18,588 nucleotides of DNA, taken from the IMG/VR virus record IMGVR_UViG_2526164690_000035, positions 1 through 18,588 of that record. One strand, given 5' to 3'. The translations under genes and the position numbers were made by a program. Positions 1 to 18,588 of this stretch are shown here, piece by piece. Position 1 is the first letter of the stretch, and every line of letters starts with the position of its first letter. This DNA is from a virus (Duplodnaviria; Heunggongvirae; Uroviricota; Caudoviricetes). The notes below the pieces were generated by a model that was given only the letters and a program-made list of their open reading frames with translations, was not told the origin of the DNA and made no database searches.

Positions 1-227
1 CCAACGTTAAGCTGTTGAGTCGTTTTAAGTGTAATTCGGGGCAGAATTGGTAAAGAGAGTCGTGTAAAATATCGAGTTCGCACATCTTGTTGTCTGATTA
101 TTGATTTTTCGCGAAACCATTTGATCATATGACAAGATGTGTATCCACCTTAACTTAATGATTTTTACCAAAATCATTAGGGGATTCATCAGTGTTGAGT
201 GGCCAGTCGCCCCGCAATAAAAGGATA

Positions 228-255
228 AAGCCATCGATAGAAATATTGATGGCTT
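228..255 (-). terminator. Putative intrinsic terminator downstream of the acetyltransferase gene
   Basis: Inverted repeat aagccatcgata / tattgatggctt (12-bp stem, one G-T pair) around a 4-nt loop, beginning 8 nt past the TAG stop at 264-266; on the minus strand it is followed by a T-rich tract (TATCCTTTTATTG). Confidence 0.45.
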
Positions 256-263
256 CATGTACT

Positions 264-836
264 CTATTTATACAATACAACACCGCTCTTTTTTGTTATA
301 TATGTGCAGTTCGATGGTATATCTTTATTTATAAAAGACATTGCACCTATTTTTACATTATCCCCAATTTTACGTGATAATCCAATGATGCAACAATTAG
401 CTCCGATATCAACGTTATTACCAATTTTTACTCTTGAACCAGGCATGTCACCATCTACCTGTCCAATGGTAGTATTCTGTCGCAAAACCAGATTTTCACC
501 AGCATCAACAGCAAAATGAACAACAATTCCAGTATGATGGGGAATTGTTAAACCTTTTCCAATATTTGCGCCCAATCCAATTTCGCAACCAAATCTGTTA
601 ATTATATTATTGTTTAACTTTCTGGCTGCTTTCTTATGTAATTTATTGCCATTAATATACATTTCATTAGCCAGTCTCCACCAGAAAAGGAAATTCCGAT
701 TGCGCTGCTTCTTCTCTCTTAATAGTCGCCAAACATCCATTTTTTCACGCCTGATGATTTCAGCCATCCAGTAGCTCAATAGAGCTTTTGAATTCCCGAA
801 GATGACAAAGTGAATAGCTATTAAGTAACATAACAT
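264..836 (-). CDS. Hexapeptide-repeat (left-handed beta-helix) O-acetyltransferase, serine acetyltransferase/WcaB-like
   Basis: 190-aa ORF. Translation contains the CysE/WcaB-type core GCEIGLGANIGKGLTIPHHTGIVV followed by repeated [LIV]-G-x-x-x-x hexapeptides (KIGNNVDIGANCCIIGLSRKIGDNVKIGAMSF). Gene and flanks are visibly AT-rich relative to the rest of the window. Start codon uncertain (weak SD before the ATG at 836). Confidence 0.75.
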   Translation of the reverse strand: MLCYLIAIHFVIFGNSKALLSYWMAEIIRREKMDVWRLLREKKQRNRNFLFWWRLANEMYINGNKLHKKAARKLNNNIINRFGCEIGLGANIGKGLTIPHHTGIVVHFAVDAGENLVLRQNTTIGQVDGDMPGSRVKIGNNVDIGANCCIIGLSRKIGDNVKIGAMSFINKDIPSNCTYITKKSGVVLYK

Positions 837-1302
837 ATTGCAACTGCCTATATTTTTTGGTTTCTATGTTTATATATTGACATTATAATTAAAACAATAA
901 TCATCAGTGTGTTACTGCGTTCCTGCTAAACTAAATCAACGCACAATGTAAACACAAATGTTAATTTTAAACTGAGCGCTAAAGGGATGTCAATATTGTA
1001 TTGATAATGAGTTGCAAGATTGCCAACACTTTCTATATTTTTGGATGTAATAATTTATATTTTATCTATTTAGTGTTTCTTTAGACTTATTAAGGATGTC
1101 ATTATTAATTTATGGCTTGCCATTTCTATACATATCTGTTAAAAATTTTGACTTGTTTGTTGAAAATAGATTTAATTGATTGGTTTATTTTTACATGACG
1201 CTCTTTAATATAGCTTCAGGTATATATAAGCACAATGCATTATTTCCAGAGGAAATTAACAAAATTGTTAGCTCTTATTTGTTGAGCTTATAGATATTAA
1301 TT

Positions 1303-1322
1303 AAGGCCCGATTCCGGGCCTT
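1303..1322 (-). terminator. GC-rich hairpin at the boundary of the AT-rich island, possible terminator for the small minus-strand ORF
   Basis: aaggcccg-attc-cgggcctt (8-bp stem) immediately 3' of the stop at 1326 on the minus strand, followed on that strand by an A/T-rich stretch (AATTAATATCTAT); T-tract is imperfect. Confidence 0.35.
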
Positions 1323-1325
1323 TCC

Positions 1326-1562
1326 TCATTCCGGCTTTTCGGGAAACGTTACTGGAAGGATGGAGGTATCCGTGGATTCGACTTTCTGCGCATAGAGAAT
1401 CCACTCGGTTAATTTTTGTTTACCCTGAACGGAAATAATGCCTAGCCGTAACTGTGAGTCCCAGAGCTGAGTTTTATCCCTGACGAGCTGTAGCAGGCTT
1501 TGCTTTTCTTTTTCCGCTTGTTGTCTTTGCATGACCGGTTGAGAAGTTACTTTGCATACCAT
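1326..1562 (-). CDS. Small hypothetical protein (78 aa), antisense to and overlapping the 5' end of lydA
   Basis: In-frame ATG at 1560-1562 within the 165-aa track ORF 1326..1823; only the part downstream of lydA looks protein-like (MVCKVTSQPVMQRQQAEKEKQSLLQLVRDKTQLWDSQ...). An AGGAGG sits only 2 nt from this ATG, so the true start may differ (alternative ATG at 1532). Not recognised as a known family. Confidence 0.3.
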   Translation of the reverse strand: MVCKVTSQPVMQRQQAEKEKQSLLQLVRDKTQLWDSQLRLGIISVQGKQKLTEWILYAQKVESTDTSILPVTFPEKPE

Positions 1563-1590
1563 TACCTCCTGACAACGTAGGAGGGAACTT

Positions 1591-1920
1591 GTGCTTGACA
1601 CACAGGAATTAGCTCCAGTTGCTATTGCGCTCCTGCTTTCAGTAATTGGTGGGATAGGCACGTTCCTGATGGATGTCCGAGACGGTCGCCAGTCTGGCAA
1701 TTTGTTAGGATTGGTTACGGAGATCTTTGTTGCAGTGACAGCTGGCGCGGTGGCGTACCTATTGGGGCAACACGAGGGCTGGGAGTTATCAATTACGTAC
1801 TTAATGGTAACGATAGCCAGCAATAACGGTCATGAGGTGATTTCAGGGATGAAACGAGTGAATATCGATAGCATTCTGAATGTTCTTACAAGTTTGGTGA
1901 AAAAGGGAGGCGGGAAATGA
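1591..1920 (+). CDS. lydA: Holin, P1 LydA-like
   Basis: 109-aa protein with GTG start preceded by AGGAGGGAA; hydrophobic transmembrane segments (VAIALLLSVIGGIGTFLM, IFVAVTAGAVAYLLG) and charged C-terminus typical of holins. Position as first gene of the operon with lydB/hdf/darA matches my recollection of P1. Name assigned by synteny and size, not by alignment. Confidence 0.65.
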   Translation: MLDTQELAPVAIALLLSVIGGIGTFLMDVRDGRQSGNLLGLVTEIFVAVTAGAVAYLLGQHEGWELSITYLMVTIASNNGHEVISGMKRVNIDSILNVLTSLVKKGGGK

Positions 1921-2360
1921 TTGGCTGGGGTGTATGCGTTCTTGCGTTAGCCTTAGCCGATCGCTATTTGCTAAAACGCAAGGACATCACGCACTTAGAA
2001 CTTGGTGATGTGGAAATTAAACCGGGTTTCATCCGGGTGCCGTTCAAATACCGGTCTAAATTCCCGTTTTTGCGCGGCGCAACGGTCAGATATTGGATCC
2101 GCGATGTTCAGAAGCCGACGACAGTGATTGAAGGCGAACAACGTTGTCTGACGTCGGCTGAACAGGGCGAAAACAGTGAATGGTTGTACATACCCACTGA
2201 ATATATGGGTAAAGGAGAGCGACTGTGGCATTTCAACGTCATGGTTACGCATGGCGACTCGTTCATTAACCCGTTGTATCGGATTTTCCCTGTTACTCAG
2301 CAAATCCGCAGAAGTTACGTAATAAATCTCGCACAGGATGTGTCAGATGACGAAAAATAA
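1917..2360 (+). CDS. lydB: LydB-like holin antagonist
   Basis: 147-aa ORF overlapping the lydA stop by 4 nt (ATGA coupling); hydrophobic N-terminus MIGWGVCVLALALA. Assignment by position after lydA and size only. Confidence 0.55.
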   Translation: MIGWGVCVLALALADRYLLKRKDITHLELGDVEIKPGFIRVPFKYRSKFPFLRGATVRYWIRDVQKPTTVIEGEQRCLTSAEQGENSEWLYIPTEYMGKGERLWHFNVMVTHGDSFINPLYRIFPVTQQIRRSYVINLAQDVSDDEK

Positions 2361-2949
2361 GTATGCAACGGTCGATTTTGACCAGGTTAATGAAAAGGGG
2401 CTGAAATCCCTTATCGCGGCGATCAATAAAACCGGGGTTACGGTAATTGAGGTTGACTCCAGCAACCGCGCAACAACGAAAGATGGCGTTAAAGTTAAAA
2501 CCGCAAAGCTGGTTCTTAACGACGGACAAATTCTTGCCATACAGGTAAACGATACTGGCGATATATCGTCTGTGAAACTGAATGGAAAAGCTATTCCTAA
2601 CGCTCAGTCGCCGGATATCAAGACGCTTGGTACCGTCATGGGACAGGCGGCTCGCAAAAACTCCGCAAAATTCCAGAAATCACTGATCGCCAAAGCGAAG
2701 CGTGTTGCCAATCCGGTAGACAAGAAACCGGCAGTTAAATCCAACTTTCAGCGCCTGCAAGAGGCAAAACAGCGGAATGCTCAGGTGGTTGCCGCTTATA
2801 AATCAGCTCAGAACTCGGTGTCTTTCAATCAACAGCAGATCACTGATTTGCGGGGGAAGCTGGATAAGGAGACAGGCCGACTCAATAACGAAAAGGCCCG
2901 AAATGGCGAACTCAAACGCCGTCTTAAGCAACTGAAAGCAGGAAATTAA
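2338..2949 (+). CDS. hdf: Hdf-like protein (homolog of a DarA fragment)
   Basis: 203-aa ORF. Shares internal segments with the downstream 639-aa protein: KNSAKFQ (DNA aaaaactccgcaaaattccag at about 2653-2676 versus aaaaactcggcaaaattccag at about 3552-3575, 20/21 nt identical) and LNDGQILAIQV versus LSDGQTISILF. Likely true start is the ATG at 2347 (MTKNK), 8 nt after an AGGA. Confidence 0.6.
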   Translation: MCQMTKNKYATVDFDQVNEKGLKSLIAAINKTGVTVIEVDSSNRATTKDGVKVKTAKLVLNDGQILAIQVNDTGDISSVKLNGKAIPNAQSPDIKTLGTVMGQAARKNSAKFQKSLIAKAKRVANPVDKKPAVKSNFQRLQEAKQRNAQVVAAYKSAQNSVSFNQQQITDLRGKLDKETGRLNNEKARNGELKRRLKQLKAGN

Positions 2950-2950
2950 C

Positions 2951-4870
2951 ATGGAACAGTTCAATATCAATAAAGGGGTGACGATCAAGCCTGGGCTTGA
3001 CGTGCTTCCCCCGCCAGTGACTGATGATGAATATCGCGCATTAATGGCCGGTGAGGACCGCTATCTGATGACGGAATCCAACACCCTGGAGGAAATCGAG
3101 GCTACGTTCTTCTATGACACGCCGATCCACTGGTGTGCTACGGATTTACTGGAGGCGATTAGTTCTACTCGTTTGCAGTTACACCGGACCATGCAGGCAT
3201 TTGTCCGGGCATTGAACCAGAAGCTGAATGGTACCGGAATCTCTGCGGGGAGTGATAAAACGGGCGATGTGGCCCAGAGCGGCGCGCGCGCGATCGGCGG
3301 CGCTGAAATTGGTCGGGCACGTAACGTTAACGGGCTGCCGGTCCTGCCAGCCATTATTCCGCTCAGTGATGGTCAGACTATCAGCATTCTGTTTCATAGC
3401 CCGACAGCGGAAAACCGGATCACCAATAGCGATACGCTGGTTGCTTTCCAGTTCTTACTGAATAAAAAAGACGTTACTCACACCGTTGCTCCGATGAGTG
3501 GACGTGATATGACGCTGGCGCAGGTCACCATGAAACTTGCCAACCTTGCAGAGAAAAACTCGGCAAAATTCCAGCGTGCGCAGAAGAAGAAAAAAGCCCT
3601 TGTTGATGAAATAACCCAACTACAGGCTGACAGTGACCAGAAAGAGGATGCCATGAGCGACCTCGCGGATCAGGTGGCAGCGGTAGAAGGGCAGAAGGCA
3701 GATCTGGAGCAGAAAATTAACGCTGTTGCATCGGAAGCGGATTCTCTTTATGAAGAGAATGAGCGTTTGCAGACGGAGATTGATCAGCTCAATCGCACTG
3801 GTGGGCGCGATACCATTGCTCCTGCGGGGATGACTGGTGGGTACTCTCGCGCGCTGACGGATCGCCTTGCCAGTATCAAAAATCGTATGCATATGAACGG
3901 GGAAGTGACGCTCAGTAATGGTGCATCAATGAAGCAATTCATTGAGGACGGCGAAGGGTATATCCAGTTAACCGATTCGGATGGCAGCGTGTACATGATC
4001 AAGGCTAAATCCATACAGGGTGTGGACATGGCAGATGCGATCGGCAAGCTGTTTAAAGCCTATAAAGCGGGTAATGTATCGGAATATCTGGTCCAACCAG
4101 AAGAACATAAACCGGAAAACGTCGAACCTGAATCAGCGGAGGATACCGGTAGCTCTTTGCCTGAACCAGAAGTCTCTGTAGGTGCATATCGATATGCCCT
4201 GCAAATGCGTCCGGCGGCCCCTGGCGCAATACCTGAAGGTAACAAAGCAATTCTGCCGCGCCCTGATGAAGGTGACCCGTATTATGAATATGCACGCTAC
4301 GGCATTGTTACTTACGATACCCCGCTTTCTGATCAGCAAATGAGTGAGTACGACCTGAAGTTATTGCCTCGCGAGGATTCTTTCGACTTCCTGGCGAAGA
4401 CACTTACTAATGGTCCGTTTGGCAAATATGCACAAAAAGCTCTGGAGCTGGCCACCAGCTCACCAGACGAGTTCCGCGTAATGCTGAAAACTCAGTTTCA
4501 AAAAACTTTCCCCAATATTGCGTTTCCTGGGGGCGCTGGCATCGAGAAAATGGTGCAGAGCATGATCAATGCATTGCAGGCCGAAGTCGGTGAGATTACT
4601 CAACCAGAACCGGTCCCGGCACAGCCTGATGAAACGGTTAGCGAAGCAGATGCAGAGGCTAATAAAGCCATTGAATATCTCAATAGCGTGATGGATATGC
4701 AAAGCACTGACATGGCGGAGATCCGTAACGCCCGGGGCAATGTCCGGGAAGCGATTGCTGCCCTTCAGGCTGCCGGACGTTTTGAGGAAAACGAAGAGCT
4801 GGTTAACGGTGCTGCTCGCCACCTGGCTGATCTGCTGGTAGCAATCCAGAAAGCGGGGGTAGCGGCATGA
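2951..4870 (+). CDS. darA: DarA-like capsid-packaged antirestriction protein
   Basis: 639-aa ORF with central coiled-coil region (LQADSDQKEDAMSDLADQVAAVEGQKADLEQKINAVASEADSLYEENERLQTEIDQL) and acidic proline-rich linkers. Size, operon position after lydA-lydB-hdf and the Hdf paralogy match my recollection of P1 DarA; no alignment done. Confidence 0.65.
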   Translation: MEQFNINKGVTIKPGLDVLPPPVTDDEYRALMAGEDRYLMTESNTLEEIEATFFYDTPIHWCATDLLEAISSTRLQLHRTMQAFVRALNQKLNGTGISAGSDKTGDVAQSGARAIGGAEIGRARNVNGLPVLPAIIPLSDGQTISILFHSPTAENRITNSDTLVAFQFLLNKKDVTHTVAPMSGRDMTLAQVTMKLANLAEKNSAKFQRAQKKKKALVDEITQLQADSDQKEDAMSDLADQVAAVEGQKADLEQKINAVASEADSLYEENERLQTEIDQLNRTGGRDTIAPAGMTGGYSRALTDRLASIKNRMHMNGEVTLSNGASMKQFIEDGEGYIQLTDSDGSVYMIKAKSIQGVDMADAIGKLFKAYKAGNVSEYLVQPEEHKPENVEPESAEDTGSSLPEPEVSVGAYRYALQMRPAAPGAIPEGNKAILPRPDEGDPYYEYARYGIVTYDTPLSDQQMSEYDLKLLPREDSFDFLAKTLTNGPFGKYAQKALELATSSPDEFRVMLKTQFQKTFPNIAFPGGAGIEKMVQSMINALQAEVGEITQPEPVPAQPDETVSEADAEANKAIEYLNSVMDMQSTDMAEIRNARGNVREAIAALQAAGRFEENEELVNGAARHLADLLVAIQKAGVAA

Positions 4871-5232
4871 CACTATCAGCTATTGAGTTAATGGACCTCA
4901 GCGATAAGTTGGATGCTCTGATGTCCAAAGCGGCTACCGCGAGTGGCATGGAGTTGCTGGATATCAGCGATGAAATTGACCAGATCATGCAACAGATGGG
5001 GTACGGCGCGTCCGGCGGCAGTAGTGGCGAGGAAAAACAACCTTCGGTACATGATGGTGTGCCAAAACTGGTTGCTGATTTCCTGGCTGATAAATTCGTC
5101 GATCAGAGCACTGATGCATTTATCGGTACGTTACAGGACTTGAGTCAATATGTTGGCACATACATCGACCTGGACCAGGTTAAACAGCACACGGCGGCAT
5201 GGATAGCCGCCAACATTAAAGAGGCAGCGTGA
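4867..5232 (+). CDS. ddrA: DdrA-like small acidic protein
   Basis: 121-aa ORF overlapping the darA stop by 4 nt (ATGA). Acidic, Asp/Glu-rich. Named by position and size only. Its stop codon abuts the right end of the TnpB element. Confidence 0.5.
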   Translation: MTLSAIELMDLSDKLDALMSKAATASGMELLDISDEIDQIMQQMGYGASGGSSGEEKQPSVHDGVPKLVADFLADKFVDQSTDAFIGTLQDLSQYVGTYIDLDQVKQHTAAWIAANIKEAA

Positions 5233-5400
5233 CATCCTCCACGCCCCGAAGGGCGTGGATTCCTGCTACGTTCAGGCTGTCGCCTGAATCATTTCGGTGG
5301 GTTCCTGCTTCAACGGGCGGCCTGACTGCACCATCCCTCCACAGGCAAGTACGGCGTGCCCCGCCGCTAAAATGTTACGAGCGCCGTTTACATCGGCGTT
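5233..5400 (-). ncRNA. Putative TnpB omega RNA (right-end element RNA) scaffold
   Basis: Inference from established TnpB biology: the guide RNA derives from the 3' end of tnpB plus the right end, and a right-end hairpin is present at 5239-5258. Extent is not determinable from sequence alone. Confidence 0.25.
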
Positions 5401-6480
5401 CGCTGTATATCCACATACCTGGCATCTGAATTTACTTTGTGACAGGCGATTTTCTTTCGCTGTATGACCACAGCACGCGCAACGCTGGCTTGTGTACGCT
5501 GGCGGAACAGCAAGCACCTGACCGCCACGCCAGAGCTGCTTGTACTCAAGCTGGCGGCGCATTTCATACCAGCCCTGATCCAGTATCGAACGGTTTAAAC
5601 CTGATTTTGCCCGGACATTGCGACCCGGATGACTTATCGTTCCCGCCGCTGACTTTGACATGTATTTAACCTTCAAATCCTCAATGACAATCATTGCGTG
5701 GTTTTTGCTGACGGTCGTTGTGACTTTGTGAAGGTAGTCCCTGCGGATATTTGCGATACGGGAATGCAGTCGCTGTATTTTGCGTTTCTGCTTCTGCCAG
5801 TTGTTGCTGAATTTGACCTTGCGGCTTAACTGTCGCTGAAGTCTCGCCAGCTTCTTCTGGTTTTTCTGAAAACTATTTACAGGTTCAAAGACTGTGCCAT
5901 CTGACAGCGTGGCGAGTTTAGCCACGCCAGCATCCAGTCCGACCATTGATGCTGAAGGGTGAACAGGAGTGGATACCTCTCTTTCTGTCTGAATACTGAT
6001 GTACCACTTACCGCAGGACTGGCTGACAGTAACATTTTTCACAATACCCGTGACCTGACGGCTATTCCGGTAGCGCATCCAGCCAAGTTTCGGCAGAAAA
6101 ATACGGCTGTTTTCCTGATCGAGCTTAACACCCTGCGGGTAGCGGAATGCATCATTCTGTCCCCGCTTTTTGAATCGGGGAAAAGCTGCCCGATTCTGGA
6201 AGAAGTTTTTGTAAGCCCGCTCAAGGTCTTTCAGTGACTGTTGCAATGGCTGTGAGGGAGAATCTTTAAGCCATTCGGTTTCAGTGTCTTTTTTCCACTC
6301 AACCAACCAGGAAGCCATTTTCGTGTAAGGGATGTATTTTTTACCGGCCTCATGATTCTCATTCTGAAGCGCCAGAGCACGGTTGAAAACGAAACGACAA
6401 GCTCCGGCAAAGCGCCTCATTTGACGCTCCTGTTGACCATCTGGTTTTAACCGGAATTTGAATGACACCTGTTGTTTCAT
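5272..6480 (-). CDS. tnpB: TnpB (OrfB) RNA-guided nuclease of the IS200/IS605 family
   Basis: 402-aa ORF with a RuvC-like core and C-terminal zinc-finger pattern (SQRCACCGH ... [20 protein letters not shown]) characteristic of TnpB/OrfB proteins. Confidence 0.9.
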
Positions 6481-6579
6481 GTCACTATTTTAAGCAAAAA
6501 TAGCCGGGAGGAAAACTGTGCCTTATATCCCCACTATGAGGAGCGTAGGGGGCGGCACATTGGATAAGGCGTAACAGGG

Positions 6580-17568: not shown

Positions 17569-17583
17569 ATGTACACTCCATTT

Positions 17584-18057
17584 TTAAATCAAGTCATCTC
17601 TTAGATTTTTAGCTACAACCATATAAAATGTTGCATATTTCATAATAATATCATCAAATTCTTTGTCTAAAACACTTCCAAGTTTCCCGTCTATAAATTT
17701 CCTCATAACGTTATTCATTCCATGTGTTTTAGCAAATATATTTTTTCCGTCTATTAAATTATCATCCTCAACAGGAGAATAAGATACACTCCATCCACAT
17801 TTGATTAAGTTTTTTGCCGATTTTGTGGAAATATCAAGAAGTATGGTTGCATCAATATTAATGATTTTACAGAATTTCATCATATTCTCTACAGAGAGAG
17901 AGGACTTACCATTTTCAATTTTTCCCCAGCCGGCACTTGTTATCCCAAGGCCAGATGCAATGTCTGATTGAGTAACACCATGCTTCTCGCGAAAATCGCG
18001 AATATGGAAAGCCAATATAGTTAAATAGGATGTTTTCATATGGGTAATGATACTCAC
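17584..18057 (-). CDS. HTH XRE-family (Cro/C1-type) DNA-binding protein with a roughly 70-aa C-terminal extension
   Basis: N-terminal helix-turn-helix KHGVTQSDIASGLGITSAGWGKIENGKSSLSVENMMKFCKIINIDATILL. Track ORF starts at the GTG at 18057; the ATG at 18037-18039 (MKTSYL...) is the more likely start (151 aa). C-terminal region not recognised. Confidence 0.75.
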   Translation of the reverse strand: MSIITHMKTSYLTILAFHIRDFREKHGVTQSDIASGLGITSAGWGKIENGKSSLSVENMMKFCKIINIDATILLDISTKSAKNLIKCGWSVSYSPVEDDNLIDGKNIFAKTHGMNNVMRKFIDGKLGSVLDKEFDDIIMKYATFYMVVAKNLRDDLI

Positions 18058-18074
18058 AGTTTATAAAACTTCAA
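18047..18074 (-). promoter_or_regulatory. Candidate sigma70 promoter giving a leaderless transcript for the HTH gene
   Basis: On the minus strand: TTGAAG (-35), 16-nt spacer, TATCAT (-10), then 7 nt (tacccat) to the ATG at 18039. An 11-bp palindrome AACTTGAAGTT overlaps the -35 and could be an operator. Confidence 0.3.
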
Positions 18075-18155
18075 GTATTTTATTGCGATAATCGTATGCG
18101 AGTCCACTTCTTGGTTGAAGATTGAACTTCGGTAATGTGCTGAAGAGACATTTAA

Positions 18156-18177
18156 TCATGCCCGGCATCAACCGGGC
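18156..18177 (-). terminator. Hairpin 3' of the KilAC-domain gene
   Basis: atgcccgg-catcaa-ccgggcat (8-bp stem), 10 nt beyond the stop at 18187; on the minus strand it is followed by GATTAAATGTCTCTT, an imperfect T-tract. Confidence 0.35.
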
Positions 18178-18186
18178 ATTCTTCCA

Positions 18187-18519
18187 TTATTCAGCCGCCA
18201 CCGGTTTTAACAAGCCAGCATCGAGCAGTTTACGCGTCAACCACTGCTGGCCTTTACCCGTTAATTGAGGCGTCAACCGTATCTGGTAGCCATCTTCATC
18301 ATCCAGCACCACTTCTTTCACCGTGAAATACCCCGCGTTGATGTACTGCTGGAACGGCACATTTTTACGTCCACCGGACGCTATCAGGATGCCGTTCTCC
18401 CGTAACCAGACAAACAGCGCGTTTTGCTTAAGTCCAACAACCTTTGCAAAATTCCCAATCAGGATCCCTTTAGCTACTGATACCCGGTCGGCAAAATCGA
18501 CTTTAGGAGCGGCGGCCAC
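18187..18519 (-). CDS. KilAC-domain (antirepressor C-terminal domain) protein
   Basis: 110-aa ORF with GTG start. Translation (VAKGILIGNFAKVVGLKQNALFVWLRENGILIASGGRKNVPFQQYINAGYFTVKEV...TPQLTGKGQQWL) resembles the C-terminal domain of phage Ant/KilA antirepressors. Confidence 0.55.
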   Translation of the reverse strand: MAAAPKVDFADRVSVAKGILIGNFAKVVGLKQNALFVWLRENGILIASGGRKNVPFQQYINAGYFTVKEVVLDDEDGYQIRLTPQLTGKGQQWLTRKLLDAGLLKPVAAE

Positions 18520-18530
18520 CAGCTGCTGAT

Positions 18531-18588
18531 TTAGCTGGTGGCTTTCTGTTCCAGAAGTTGCTTTTGTTCAGCCAGTTCGGCAGCCAGG
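18531..18588 (-). CDS. 3' end of a minus-strand gene running off the window edge
   Basis: Open frame from the window edge ending ...LAAELAEQKQLLEQKATS then TAA (stop at 18531-18533), 12 nt upstream of the KilAC ORF start; may be the N-terminal part of a split antirepressor gene. Confidence 0.3.
   Translation of the reverse strand, partial: LAAELAEQKQLLEQKATS

Follow-up and report, generated by a model that had tools for sequence, protein, structure and literature searches.

Results

A late-gene arm with four interruptions

We analysed a stretch of 18,588 nucleotides (nt) from the IMG/VR virus record IMGVR_UViG_2526164690_000035; by the window, we mean this whole stretch. The window is the late-gene arm of a P1/P7-type phage-plasmid (Punavirus), from the lineage seen in O111 and O26 Shiga-toxin Escherichia coli. 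In order, it takes in the last part of the tail-fibre module, the dar operon, ssb-lyz, pro-prt, and lxc. Its backbone genes are lydA, lydB, hdf, darA, and ddrA; then ddrB and hxr; then ssb, lyz, and lydD; then pro and prt; and finally lxc. Four segments interrupt this backbone: an acetyltransferase island (193-1530), a tnpB element (5229-6563), a porin island (10084-11950), and a pair of genes that encode a helix-turn-helix (HTH) protein and a DUF3944 protein (16741-18186).

An earlier reading, made from the sequence alone, had proposed that the modules keep a P1-like order, and this was correct. There is a single collinear BLAST path to P1 (1531-5228, 6564-10083, 11951-16398, and 16464-16738) at 97.7-98.9% nucleotide identity, and the 15 backbone proteins are 96-100% identical to those of P1 and 97-100% identical to those of P7. 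When the window is aligned to P7 and to JL22, the middle block is unbroken (6564-16398). The product of darA also matches the NCBIfam DarA equivalog at 1085 bits. The conserved phage backbone also retains intact C1 and late-promoter control elements. LPdar (1544-1562), LPlyz (12503-12521), and LPpro (16222-16240), which are late promoters, and Op(ssb) (12459-12475), a C1 operator, all match the P1 sequences exactly. A second site that resembles a C1 operator lies at 16309-16325.

A complete phage-plasmid with the same arm

Base by base, positions 194-18330 have no differences from p88_0502-1 (NZ_CP077568.1), which is from an O111:H11 cattle isolate of E. coli. This circular record of 99,452 base pairs (bp) was the top match among complete E. 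coli genomes. It carries a RepB-family initiator, ParA/ParB-type genes, a Cre-type recombinase, the C1 repressor, and terminase, along with dnaB, a Dam-family methylase, tRNA genes (Asn, Tyr, Thr, and Ile), and a doc-type (death-on-curing) toxin. Because the genes for replication, partition, the recombinase, C1, and terminase are all present, p88_0502-1 is a complete P1-type phage-plasmid. The P1-type genes for replication and partition, Cre, C1, and packaging have their positions outside the window, and they are found on this 100%-identical relative. Among phage records, megablast with the whole window matched P1, P7, JL22, and their relatives at 97.5-98.8% identity over 65-82% of the length. 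Also, P1-like plasmids from O111 and O26 Shiga-toxin strains, including pO111_2 of strain 11128, have individual junctions in common with the window.

We used the junctions of the window as probes against 5,426 complete E. coli genomes. The HTH/DUF3944 pair (which we call the Xre-JukA cassette, for reasons given below) was present in 8 of them, always on plasmids (8 of 8) of 96-105 kilobases (kb). The left junction of the porin island was found in 93 genomes, and 112 of its 114 places are on plasmids. The claim that the window derives from a phage-plasmid is thus upheld, both by a near-identical circular plasmid with a P1-type gene set and by junctions that occur almost only on plasmids. The alignment to P1 and P7 did not give the picture of chromosomal genes with scattered phage remnants, as the backbone is contiguous and collinear. 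By these comparisons, the window is a stretch of a P1/P7-type phage-plasmid from cattle-associated E. coli, and it is ordinary for its kind.

Cargo at published variable sites

Three of the four interruptions were expected to be AT-rich relative to the backbone, and the profile of guanine-plus-cytosine (GC) content agrees. Across one hundred 500-bp windows of the backbone, the mean GC content was 0.503, with a standard deviation of 0.025 and a minimum of 0.444. The acetyltransferase island (34.8%), the porin island (39.5%), and the Xre-JukA island (35.7%) lie below this range, and the tnpB element (50.3%) is at the level of the backbone. In the porin island, the low GC is mainly in the flanks: the upstream leader (9863-10601) has 30.4% GC, while the porin coding sequence (10602-11717) has 44.6% and is just marginally low.

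A survey of 77 P1-like phage-plasmids defined eight highly variable regions (PMC9603915). These include res-mod, isaA-IS1-isaB, and lydC-cin-Sv'-U'-U-S, and the first two of these are among the regions that were tied to low G+C. Regions 3 (lydC-cin-C segment), 2 (isaA-IS1-isaB), and 1 (res-mod) of that survey are the sites of the acetyltransferase, porin, and Xre-JukA islands, respectively. The insertion sequence (IS) site between ddrA and ddrB and the deletion in darB and ulx that we describe below are outside of the eight regions. So the suggestion that the cargo lies at known variable sites is right for the three islands that are not insertion sequences but does not extend to the tnpB element, which is inside an operon.

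What occupies these sites varies among related elements. On the 3' side of lxc, P1 and P7 have type III restriction-modification genes, pM121-2 has a RelA/SpoT-domain protein, pO26_EH031_1 has SIR2, and the plasmid of MBT-5 has nothing; the window and pEC21Z048-103K have Xre-JukA. The gap between hxr and ssb in P1-like elements holds isaB-IS1-isaA, a porin, two hypothetical genes, or HipA/YjjJ. The boundaries of the islands are sharp and lie at the ends of genes: at the stop codon of lxc (16740), at the stop codon of ssb (11951), and, for the boundary at 1531, 13 bp away from LPdar. Apart from the features of the insertion sequences, the direct and inverted repeats that flank the islands are short and at the level expected by chance, and we found no tRNA genes in the window that could be targets for integration.

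Across eight related elements, a table of presence and absence contains all four combinations of the IS605 element with the porin and all four combinations of JukA with darB. Together with the identical junction sequences, this points to an exchange of cassettes by recombination in the conserved flanks, along with transposition and deletion. We conclude, with a probability of about 0.88, that the window is an arm of a phage-plasmid with a conserved backbone and cargo at published variable sites, and that it was built by exchange, transposition, and deletion. The features of the window are collected in Table 1.

Table 1. Features of the window in order of position (aa, amino acids).
Positions	Strand	Feature	Basis
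1-192	-	Outer end of IS10 (ISVsa5), cut by the window edge	Rfam RF00240; terminus read directly
193-221	+	Last 29 nt of tfa (tail-fibre-assembly gene), abutted by IS10	BLAST; direct reading
264-836	-	Hexapeptide-repeat O-acetyltransferase, 190 aa, 35% GC	Pfam Hexapep; phrog_2154
837-1325	.	Spacer, 28% GC	
1326-1562	-	C-terminal remnant of a U-type tail-fibre-assembly gene	Pfam Caudo_TAP, profile positions 55-131 only
1531-5232	+	LPdar; lydA 1591-1920; lydB 1917-2360; hdf 2338-2949; darA 2951-4870; ddrA 4867-5232	BLAST; P1 identity
5229-6563	-	IS200/IS605-family element with tnpB 5272-6480 (402 aa) only	Borders versus empty site; Pfam; NCBIfam
6580-9862	+	ddrB 6580-9567 (995 aa, ddrB-ParB domain); hxr 9557-9862	Pfam; P1 identity
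9863-10083	.	P1-homologous tail 3' of hxr, which by coordinates includes the final isaB codons; 34% GC	
10084-11950	+	Leader, porin coding sequence 10602-11717 (371 aa), and structured 3' region	Pfam; NCBIfam; protein identity
11951-13413	.	ssb 11951-12439 (- strand); Op(ssb); LPlyz; lyz 12609-13166; lydD 13159-13413	
13458-16240	-	pro 13458-14477; prt/portal 14470-16179; LPpro	
16255-16463	+	Deletion scar: darB codons 1-48 (16255-16398) and 63-nt darB-ulx boundary piece (16393-16455)	P1 comparison
16492-16740	+	lxc	100% aa identity to P1
16741-18186	-	Xre-type HTH gene 17584-18039 (151 aa); jukA 16816-17568 (250 aa); 36% GC	Pfam; PADLOC
18187-18588	-	3' part of antirepressor gene (KilAC/ANT domain), cut by the window edge	

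The Xre-JukA cassette

The Xre-JukA cassette fits exactly between the stop codon of lxc and that of the antirepressor gene, which is the res-mod position of P1 and P7. There are promoter-like sites at 18106-18047 and a hairpin (16771-16795) between the cassette and lxc. The larger protein contains DUF3944 (PF13099, 7e-14) and Cbp3-like (PF03981, 3.7e-08) domains, and it matches PADLOC's model of JukA with E = 3.2e-66 across residues 2-242 of 250. We found no match to JukB in the cassette; by Pfam and PADLOC, the partner is an Xre-type HTH protein. The sequence-only reading had suggested that some of the cargo might be for defence, and this stands for one cassette only, namely the HTH/DUF3944 (YaaW) pair, in which the DUF3944 protein is JukA according to PADLOC. 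Elsewhere in the window, PADLOC had no match for the acetyltransferase, porin, hxr, ddrB, or ant, and we set aside its matches to darA, which are weak and of the coiled-coil type.

According to a preprint (bioRxiv 10.1101/2022.09.17.508391), phiKZ-like nucleus-forming phages are blocked by a system whose sensor is JukA (formerly YaaW), and this protein is reported to sense proteins that are ejected from phage heads. The same study found that an Escherichia operon, "jukA;HTH-XRE" (Jo6, WP_121372120.1), was protective and that JukA alone was sufficient. The cassette of the window corresponds to this variant of the system. The JukA of the window is 73% identical to this tested protein, and the HTH proteins are 66% identical. 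WP_121372120.1 is located on NZ_CP085065.1, a 94-kb non-mobilizable plasmid of E. coli. There, a block of cargo at 2368-5753 (TnpB, HicA, a hypothetical gene, Xre, and JukA) is flanked by a ddrA-sized gene beside a DarA homologue and by a short ddrB-ParB gene. These neighbours place the tested Juk operon at the ddrA|ddrB junction of a phage-plasmid that has P1-type Dar genes. This is the junction that holds the tnpB element in the window.

The cassette of the window was absent from the deposited phage genomes that we searched. Our literature search found no paper that joins Juk with phage-plasmids, and the Juk preprint does not mention that context. In this element, JukA under the control of its Xre regulator would protect both the host and the plasmid from nucleus-forming jumbo phages. 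It is conceivable, though we hold the idea only tentatively, that Xre-JukA represents Juk immunity in a phage-plasmid form, which elements with P1-type Dar genes spread through E. coli and insert at several backbone junctions. Because JukA is reported to sense ejected proteins and P1-type phages eject Dar head proteins, the cassette could target rivals that inject internal proteins, including nucleus-forming phages of E. coli. The genomic locations are what we observed; the activity of the cassette and the range of its targets are speculation.

There are also distant relatives of JukA (25-28% identity by tblastn, with no Pfam match) in Klebsiella, for example in pKP301b (NZ_KY354306.1, 3980-4648). 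These JukA-like proteins are encoded by about 37 non-mobilizable Klebsiella plasmids of about 110 kb, and their neighbours include an N-6-adenine methyltransferase with a phage-type annotation and a 3'-5' exonuclease. These plasmids may be phage-plasmids of another group. As a separate matter of annotation, the JukA of the window (16819-17568) scores 116 bits against NCBIfam PRK10236, "acidic protein MsyB", which has a cut-off of 395, and chromosomal homologues are annotated as msyB. The MsyB name looks misassigned for a YaaW-family protein.

The porin island

The porin segment stands where P1 has isaB-IS1-isaA, with its left boundary inside isaB and its right boundary at the stop codon of ssb. 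The protein has a Porin_1 domain (PF00267, 3e-148, residues 29-371) and belongs to NCBIfam's OmpC subfamily (531 bits versus a cut-off of 484). It is identical to NmpC of P7, whose record annotates a signal peptide, and 96% identical to the porin of JL22; at the nucleotide level, its identity to nmpC of DLP12, a prophage of K-12, is about 75%. The sole tandem repeat that we found is in the leader (30% GC), about 200 nt upstream of the start of the porin: a 23-nt unit, TTTTGTGCTAATTTAATTGATTGTC, is present in 2.6 copies at 10349-10410. This may be a putative array of binding sites for a regulator.

The spacer between the porin and ssb (11718-11900) has five strong hairpins, with a minimum free energy of -76.9 kcal/mol (z = -8.0), and a predicted terminator at 11874-11891 closes the 3' region of the porin. 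This spacer is identical in P7 and is partly conserved 3' of nmpC in the DLP12 prophage of K-12. The small RNA IpeX maps downstream of nmpC in DLP12, and 11718-11900 could be a candidate IpeX-like RNA that travels with the porin. An Rfam scan of the window (E <= 0.1) reported only RNA-OUT, from the IS10 end, and a match of this spacer to GcvB that is below threshold (30.5 bits).

The tnpB element

The 1335-bp element that interrupts the dar operon has exact borders, by comparison with the empty sites in P1 and P7. Its TnpB is full-length, with the domains OrfB_IS605 (PF01385), Cas12f1-like_TNB (PF07282), and HTH_OrfB (PF12323), and scores 393 bits against NCBIfam's guided_TnpB (cut-off 100). 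There is no tnpA within the element: tnpB is its sole open reading frame, so the element is non-autonomous. It inserted 3' of TTAT (at its left end) without a target duplication. This TTAT is the complement of the TAA stop codon of ddrA, and the right end of the element provides a new TGA, so the frame of ddrA keeps the same final residues. The ends of the element have subterminal hairpins, and the hairpin at the right end is predicted to be strong. The element had been counted among the cargo at module junctions, but its place is within the dar operon, where it separates ddrA from ddrB in antisense orientation. The insertion junction was found in 64 complete genomes, as compared to 4,897 of the 5,426 for the IS end alone, mostly on chromosomes. 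We found no CRISPR arrays or iterons beside tnpB. We also considered a CRISPR system, but the matches of TnpB to PADLOC's Cas12f models reflect the known homology.

The tail-fibre end and IS10

At its left edge, the window enters IS10, a member of the IS4 family. It includes the first 28 codons of the transposase (85 to 1, - strand) and RNA-OUT (78-147, + strand; RF00240 at 98.8 bits versus a gathering score of 41). The terminus CTGATGAATCCCC (reverse complement) ends at 192, and the 9-mer that follows the IS10|tfa junction, TGTTGAGTG, resembles an IS10 target. The end of IS10 in the window is 99% identical to the IS10 copy of p88_0502-1. That copy has the same orientation and 9-bp target duplications but sits 4.4 kb further left. 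The source of the window is therefore a close relative of p88_0502-1 with either an adjacent deletion by IS10, with loss of the tail-fibre genes, or a second insertion of IS10.

The acetyltransferase gene next to tfa is the "sacF" of JL22 (94.7% aa identity). We rejected serine O-acetyltransferase (CysE; 65.6 bits versus a cut-off of 210.65) as well as EpsC (77.5 bits versus 150) and WcaB (56.5 bits versus 194.65). By these scores, the database name "serine acetyltransferase" is not supported for 264-836, and we describe the product simply as a hexapeptide acyltransferase. A predicted sigma-70-like promoter that is strong (11 of 12 matches; 993-964, - strand) is directed at the acetyltransferase, and the spacer contains a GC hairpin at 1306-1321. 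Beyond the spacer, homology of the U remnant to JL22 stops at 1508. Relative to JL22, about 2.9 kb is gone (the 5' part of U, S, cin, and lydC), and the join is 13 bp upstream of LPdar. The resulting ΔU|LPdar junction was found in 49 complete genomes. Island 1 (193-1530) is a remnant of an alternative tail-fibre module from which S, cin, and lydC were deleted.

Loss of darB and ulx

The window had been described as carrying its own counter-defence (Dar) operon. This is true in part: hdf, darA, ddrA, and ddrB are intact, but darB is down to 48 codons and ulx is mostly deleted, so the six-component Dar set of P1 is not complete. The losses relative to P1 amount to about 6.6 kb for darB and 364 bp for ulx, and only about 10% of ulx was matched. 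The same scar is present in 26 complete genomes, mostly from O111 and related cattle or human isolates. In the literature on Dar, the EcoB/EcoK phenotype is linked to DarB, Ulx, and DdrB, while DarA and Hdf are needed for protection from EcoA and for head morphogenesis. We expect that the remaining hdf, darA, ddrA, and ddrB would still serve head morphogenesis and DarA-type anti-restriction, and that DarB-type protection would be lost. The difference from P1 was also portrayed as cargo that has accumulated. There is cargo, but much of the difference is loss, both of the darB and ulx sequence (about 6.6 kb and 0.36 kb) and of the segment of about 2.9 kb that JL22 retains.

The antirepressor fragment

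At the right end of the window, the ant fragment is frameshifted at 18540, where one nucleotide is missing (GG in place of GGG). All of the remaining differences from p88_0502-1 cluster in 18331-18588, and there the window is closer to the C1-proximal copy of ant than to the local copy. These differences could reflect gene conversion or recombination between ant paralogues, or they could be a homopolymer sequencing error. We also note that p88_0502-1 carries at least five icd-ant (antirepressor) modules, one of which is a pseudogene (L004 28589-38235; L005 2601-4821 and 30296-31548). Three of these modules are around cre and c1, so its immunity region is heavily duplicated.

Discussion

How the mosaic may have formed

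We propose that homologous recombination between co-resident P1-like elements would have brought in the porin segment (P7 type), the acetyltransferase/tail-fibre segment (JL22 type), and Xre-JukA at res-mod. According to the literature, about 30% of genes in P1-like elements are recombining, and defence genes are enriched among them. Transposition would account for the tnpB-only IS200/IS605 element 3' of TTAT at the stop codon of ddrA and for the end of IS10 that is joined to the 3' end of tfa, and deletion would account for the loss of darB and ulx and of S, cin, and lydC. The cargo has low GC and promoter- and terminator-like signals of its own, and it sits in gaps between transcription units. 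The late operons would thus remain unbroken, and the cargo could be expressed from the plasmid prophage. Once expressed, the porin and the acetyltransferase would alter the surface of the lysogen (lysogenic conversion).

Some points weigh against this account. We infer that the replicon of the window is circular and complete from its relative, p88_0502-1. The IS10|tfa junction matches none of the 5,426 complete E. coli genomes. Insertions or deletions that recurred independently might explain part of the four-combination patterns, although the identical junctions argue otherwise. The Juk homologue that was tested gave protection in Pseudomonas (P. aeruginosa) against phiKZ-like phages rather than in E. 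coli.

An explanation that overlaps with ours, and to which we would give somewhat less than even odds, is decay: a degenerating phage-plasmid, by now effectively a plasmid, whose differences are mainly losses and IS damage. Gene loss that turns P1-like elements into plain plasmids is described in the literature. In the window, only 48 codons of darB and a fragment of ulx survive; U is truncated, and S, cin, and lydC are gone; and the ant fragment is frameshifted. But darB, cin, and lydC are dispensable for plaque formation by P1, and the other late genes are intact, are 96-100% identical to P1, and have exact control elements. Furthermore, the ΔU|LPdar junction and the darB scar, in 49 and 26 genomes, come from many independent isolates, which implies that these forms persist. 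The insertion sequences also leave room for decay, as one lies in the dar operon, antisense and upstream of ddrB, and an adjacent deletion by IS10, whose end is fused to the last 29 nt of tfa, would have removed the tail-fibre genes. However, the IS10 junction could be explained equally well if IS10 had simply inserted anew close to where tfa ends.

Our preferred reading, of an exchanging phage-plasmid, also has to be weighed against two ideas that question the context of the window, and we find both to be very improbable. If the window were chromosomal, with its P1-like genes as isolated remnants, then we would not expect 18.1 kb of it to be shared at 100% identity with a circular plasmid of 99 kb that has the full set of P1-type genes, nor the JukA cassette to be on plasmids only, nor the backbone genes to be contiguous and intact. 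On the other side, 2 of the 114 places with the porin junction and 28 of the 1182 with the darB scar are on chromosomes, integrated P1-like prophages have been reported in the literature, and the edge of the window in IS10 could mark a cointegrate. Slightly less plausible still is an assembly chimera, in which the IS10 and ant repeats led to the mis-joining of unrelated contigs. The differences from p88_0502-1 are indeed confined to the two ends of the window and are in repeats (IS10, and ant with three copies in p88_0502-1). Yet every internal junction is found exactly in 8 to 93 independent complete genomes, and the unique IS10|tfa join has a bona fide IS10 terminus beside a plausible target site.

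Most of this is already known: the architecture, the variable sites, and their low GC have been published, and a plasmid segment that is 100% identical is in RefSeq. The window is a textbook case of a P1-like phage-plasmid, in which the phage backbone stays fixed while cargo is exchanged at a small number of low-GC sites, and it matters little beyond annotation. For annotation, a "DUF3944/YaaW + HTH" pair can be labelled as a JukA-type defence cassette. What is mildly new is that Xre-JukA cassettes, including the operon from E. coli that was tested, are cargo of phage-plasmids. Also, one survey reported the Dar system in every P1/D6 element that it examined; in contrast, the window belongs to a sublineage, mostly plasmids of Shiga-toxin E. 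coli, that lacks darB and ulx.

Comparison with known elements

The closest relative, p88_0502-1, has the same acetyltransferase, ΔU|LPdar junction, tnpB insertion, porin, darB/ulx scar, and Xre-JukA cassette as the window. It differs in the location of IS10, and its tail-fibre genes are intact between IS10 and tfa. Plasmid pO111_2 (NC_013370.1) has at least the tfa-acetyltransferase segment in common with the window.

Of the classical phages, P7 (AF503408) shares the gene order and the hxr-to-porin junction, and its Hxr, porin (NmpC), Ssb, Lyz, and Pro proteins are 100% identical. However, P7 has cin, the C segment, lydC, intact darB, intact ulx (olxA), and type III res-mod, all of which are missing from the window, while the window carries the tnpB element, the acetyltransferase, and JukA, which P7 lacks. 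P1 (AF234172 / NC_005856) is collinear with the window along the backbone, the proteins are 96-100% identical, and the late promoters and Op(ssb) are the same. Unlike the window, P1 has isaB-IS1-isaA at the position of the porin, res-mod at the position of Xre-JukA, and an empty ddrA|ddrB site, along with intact darB, ulx, cin, and C segment, which the window does not have. JL22 has the same acetyltransferase adjoining tfa, plus a porin, but it keeps U, S, cin, lydC, and darB, of which the window has no intact copies.

The tnpB element resembles the tnpB-only IS200/IS605 elements of E. coli (annotated as insQ), which likewise have a full-length TnpB and subterminal hairpins and lie 3' of TTAT. 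The identical insertion is present in phage RCS47, pM121-2, pO26_EH031_1, and MBT-5. Finally, the Juk operon Jo6 has the same gene order as the cassette of the window (Xre-HTH and then JukA) and the same architecture of DUF3944 plus Cbp3-like domains, and it too is on a phage-plasmid with P1-type Dar genes. It is another allele, at a site like ddrA|ddrB, whereas the allele of the window is at the res-mod site.

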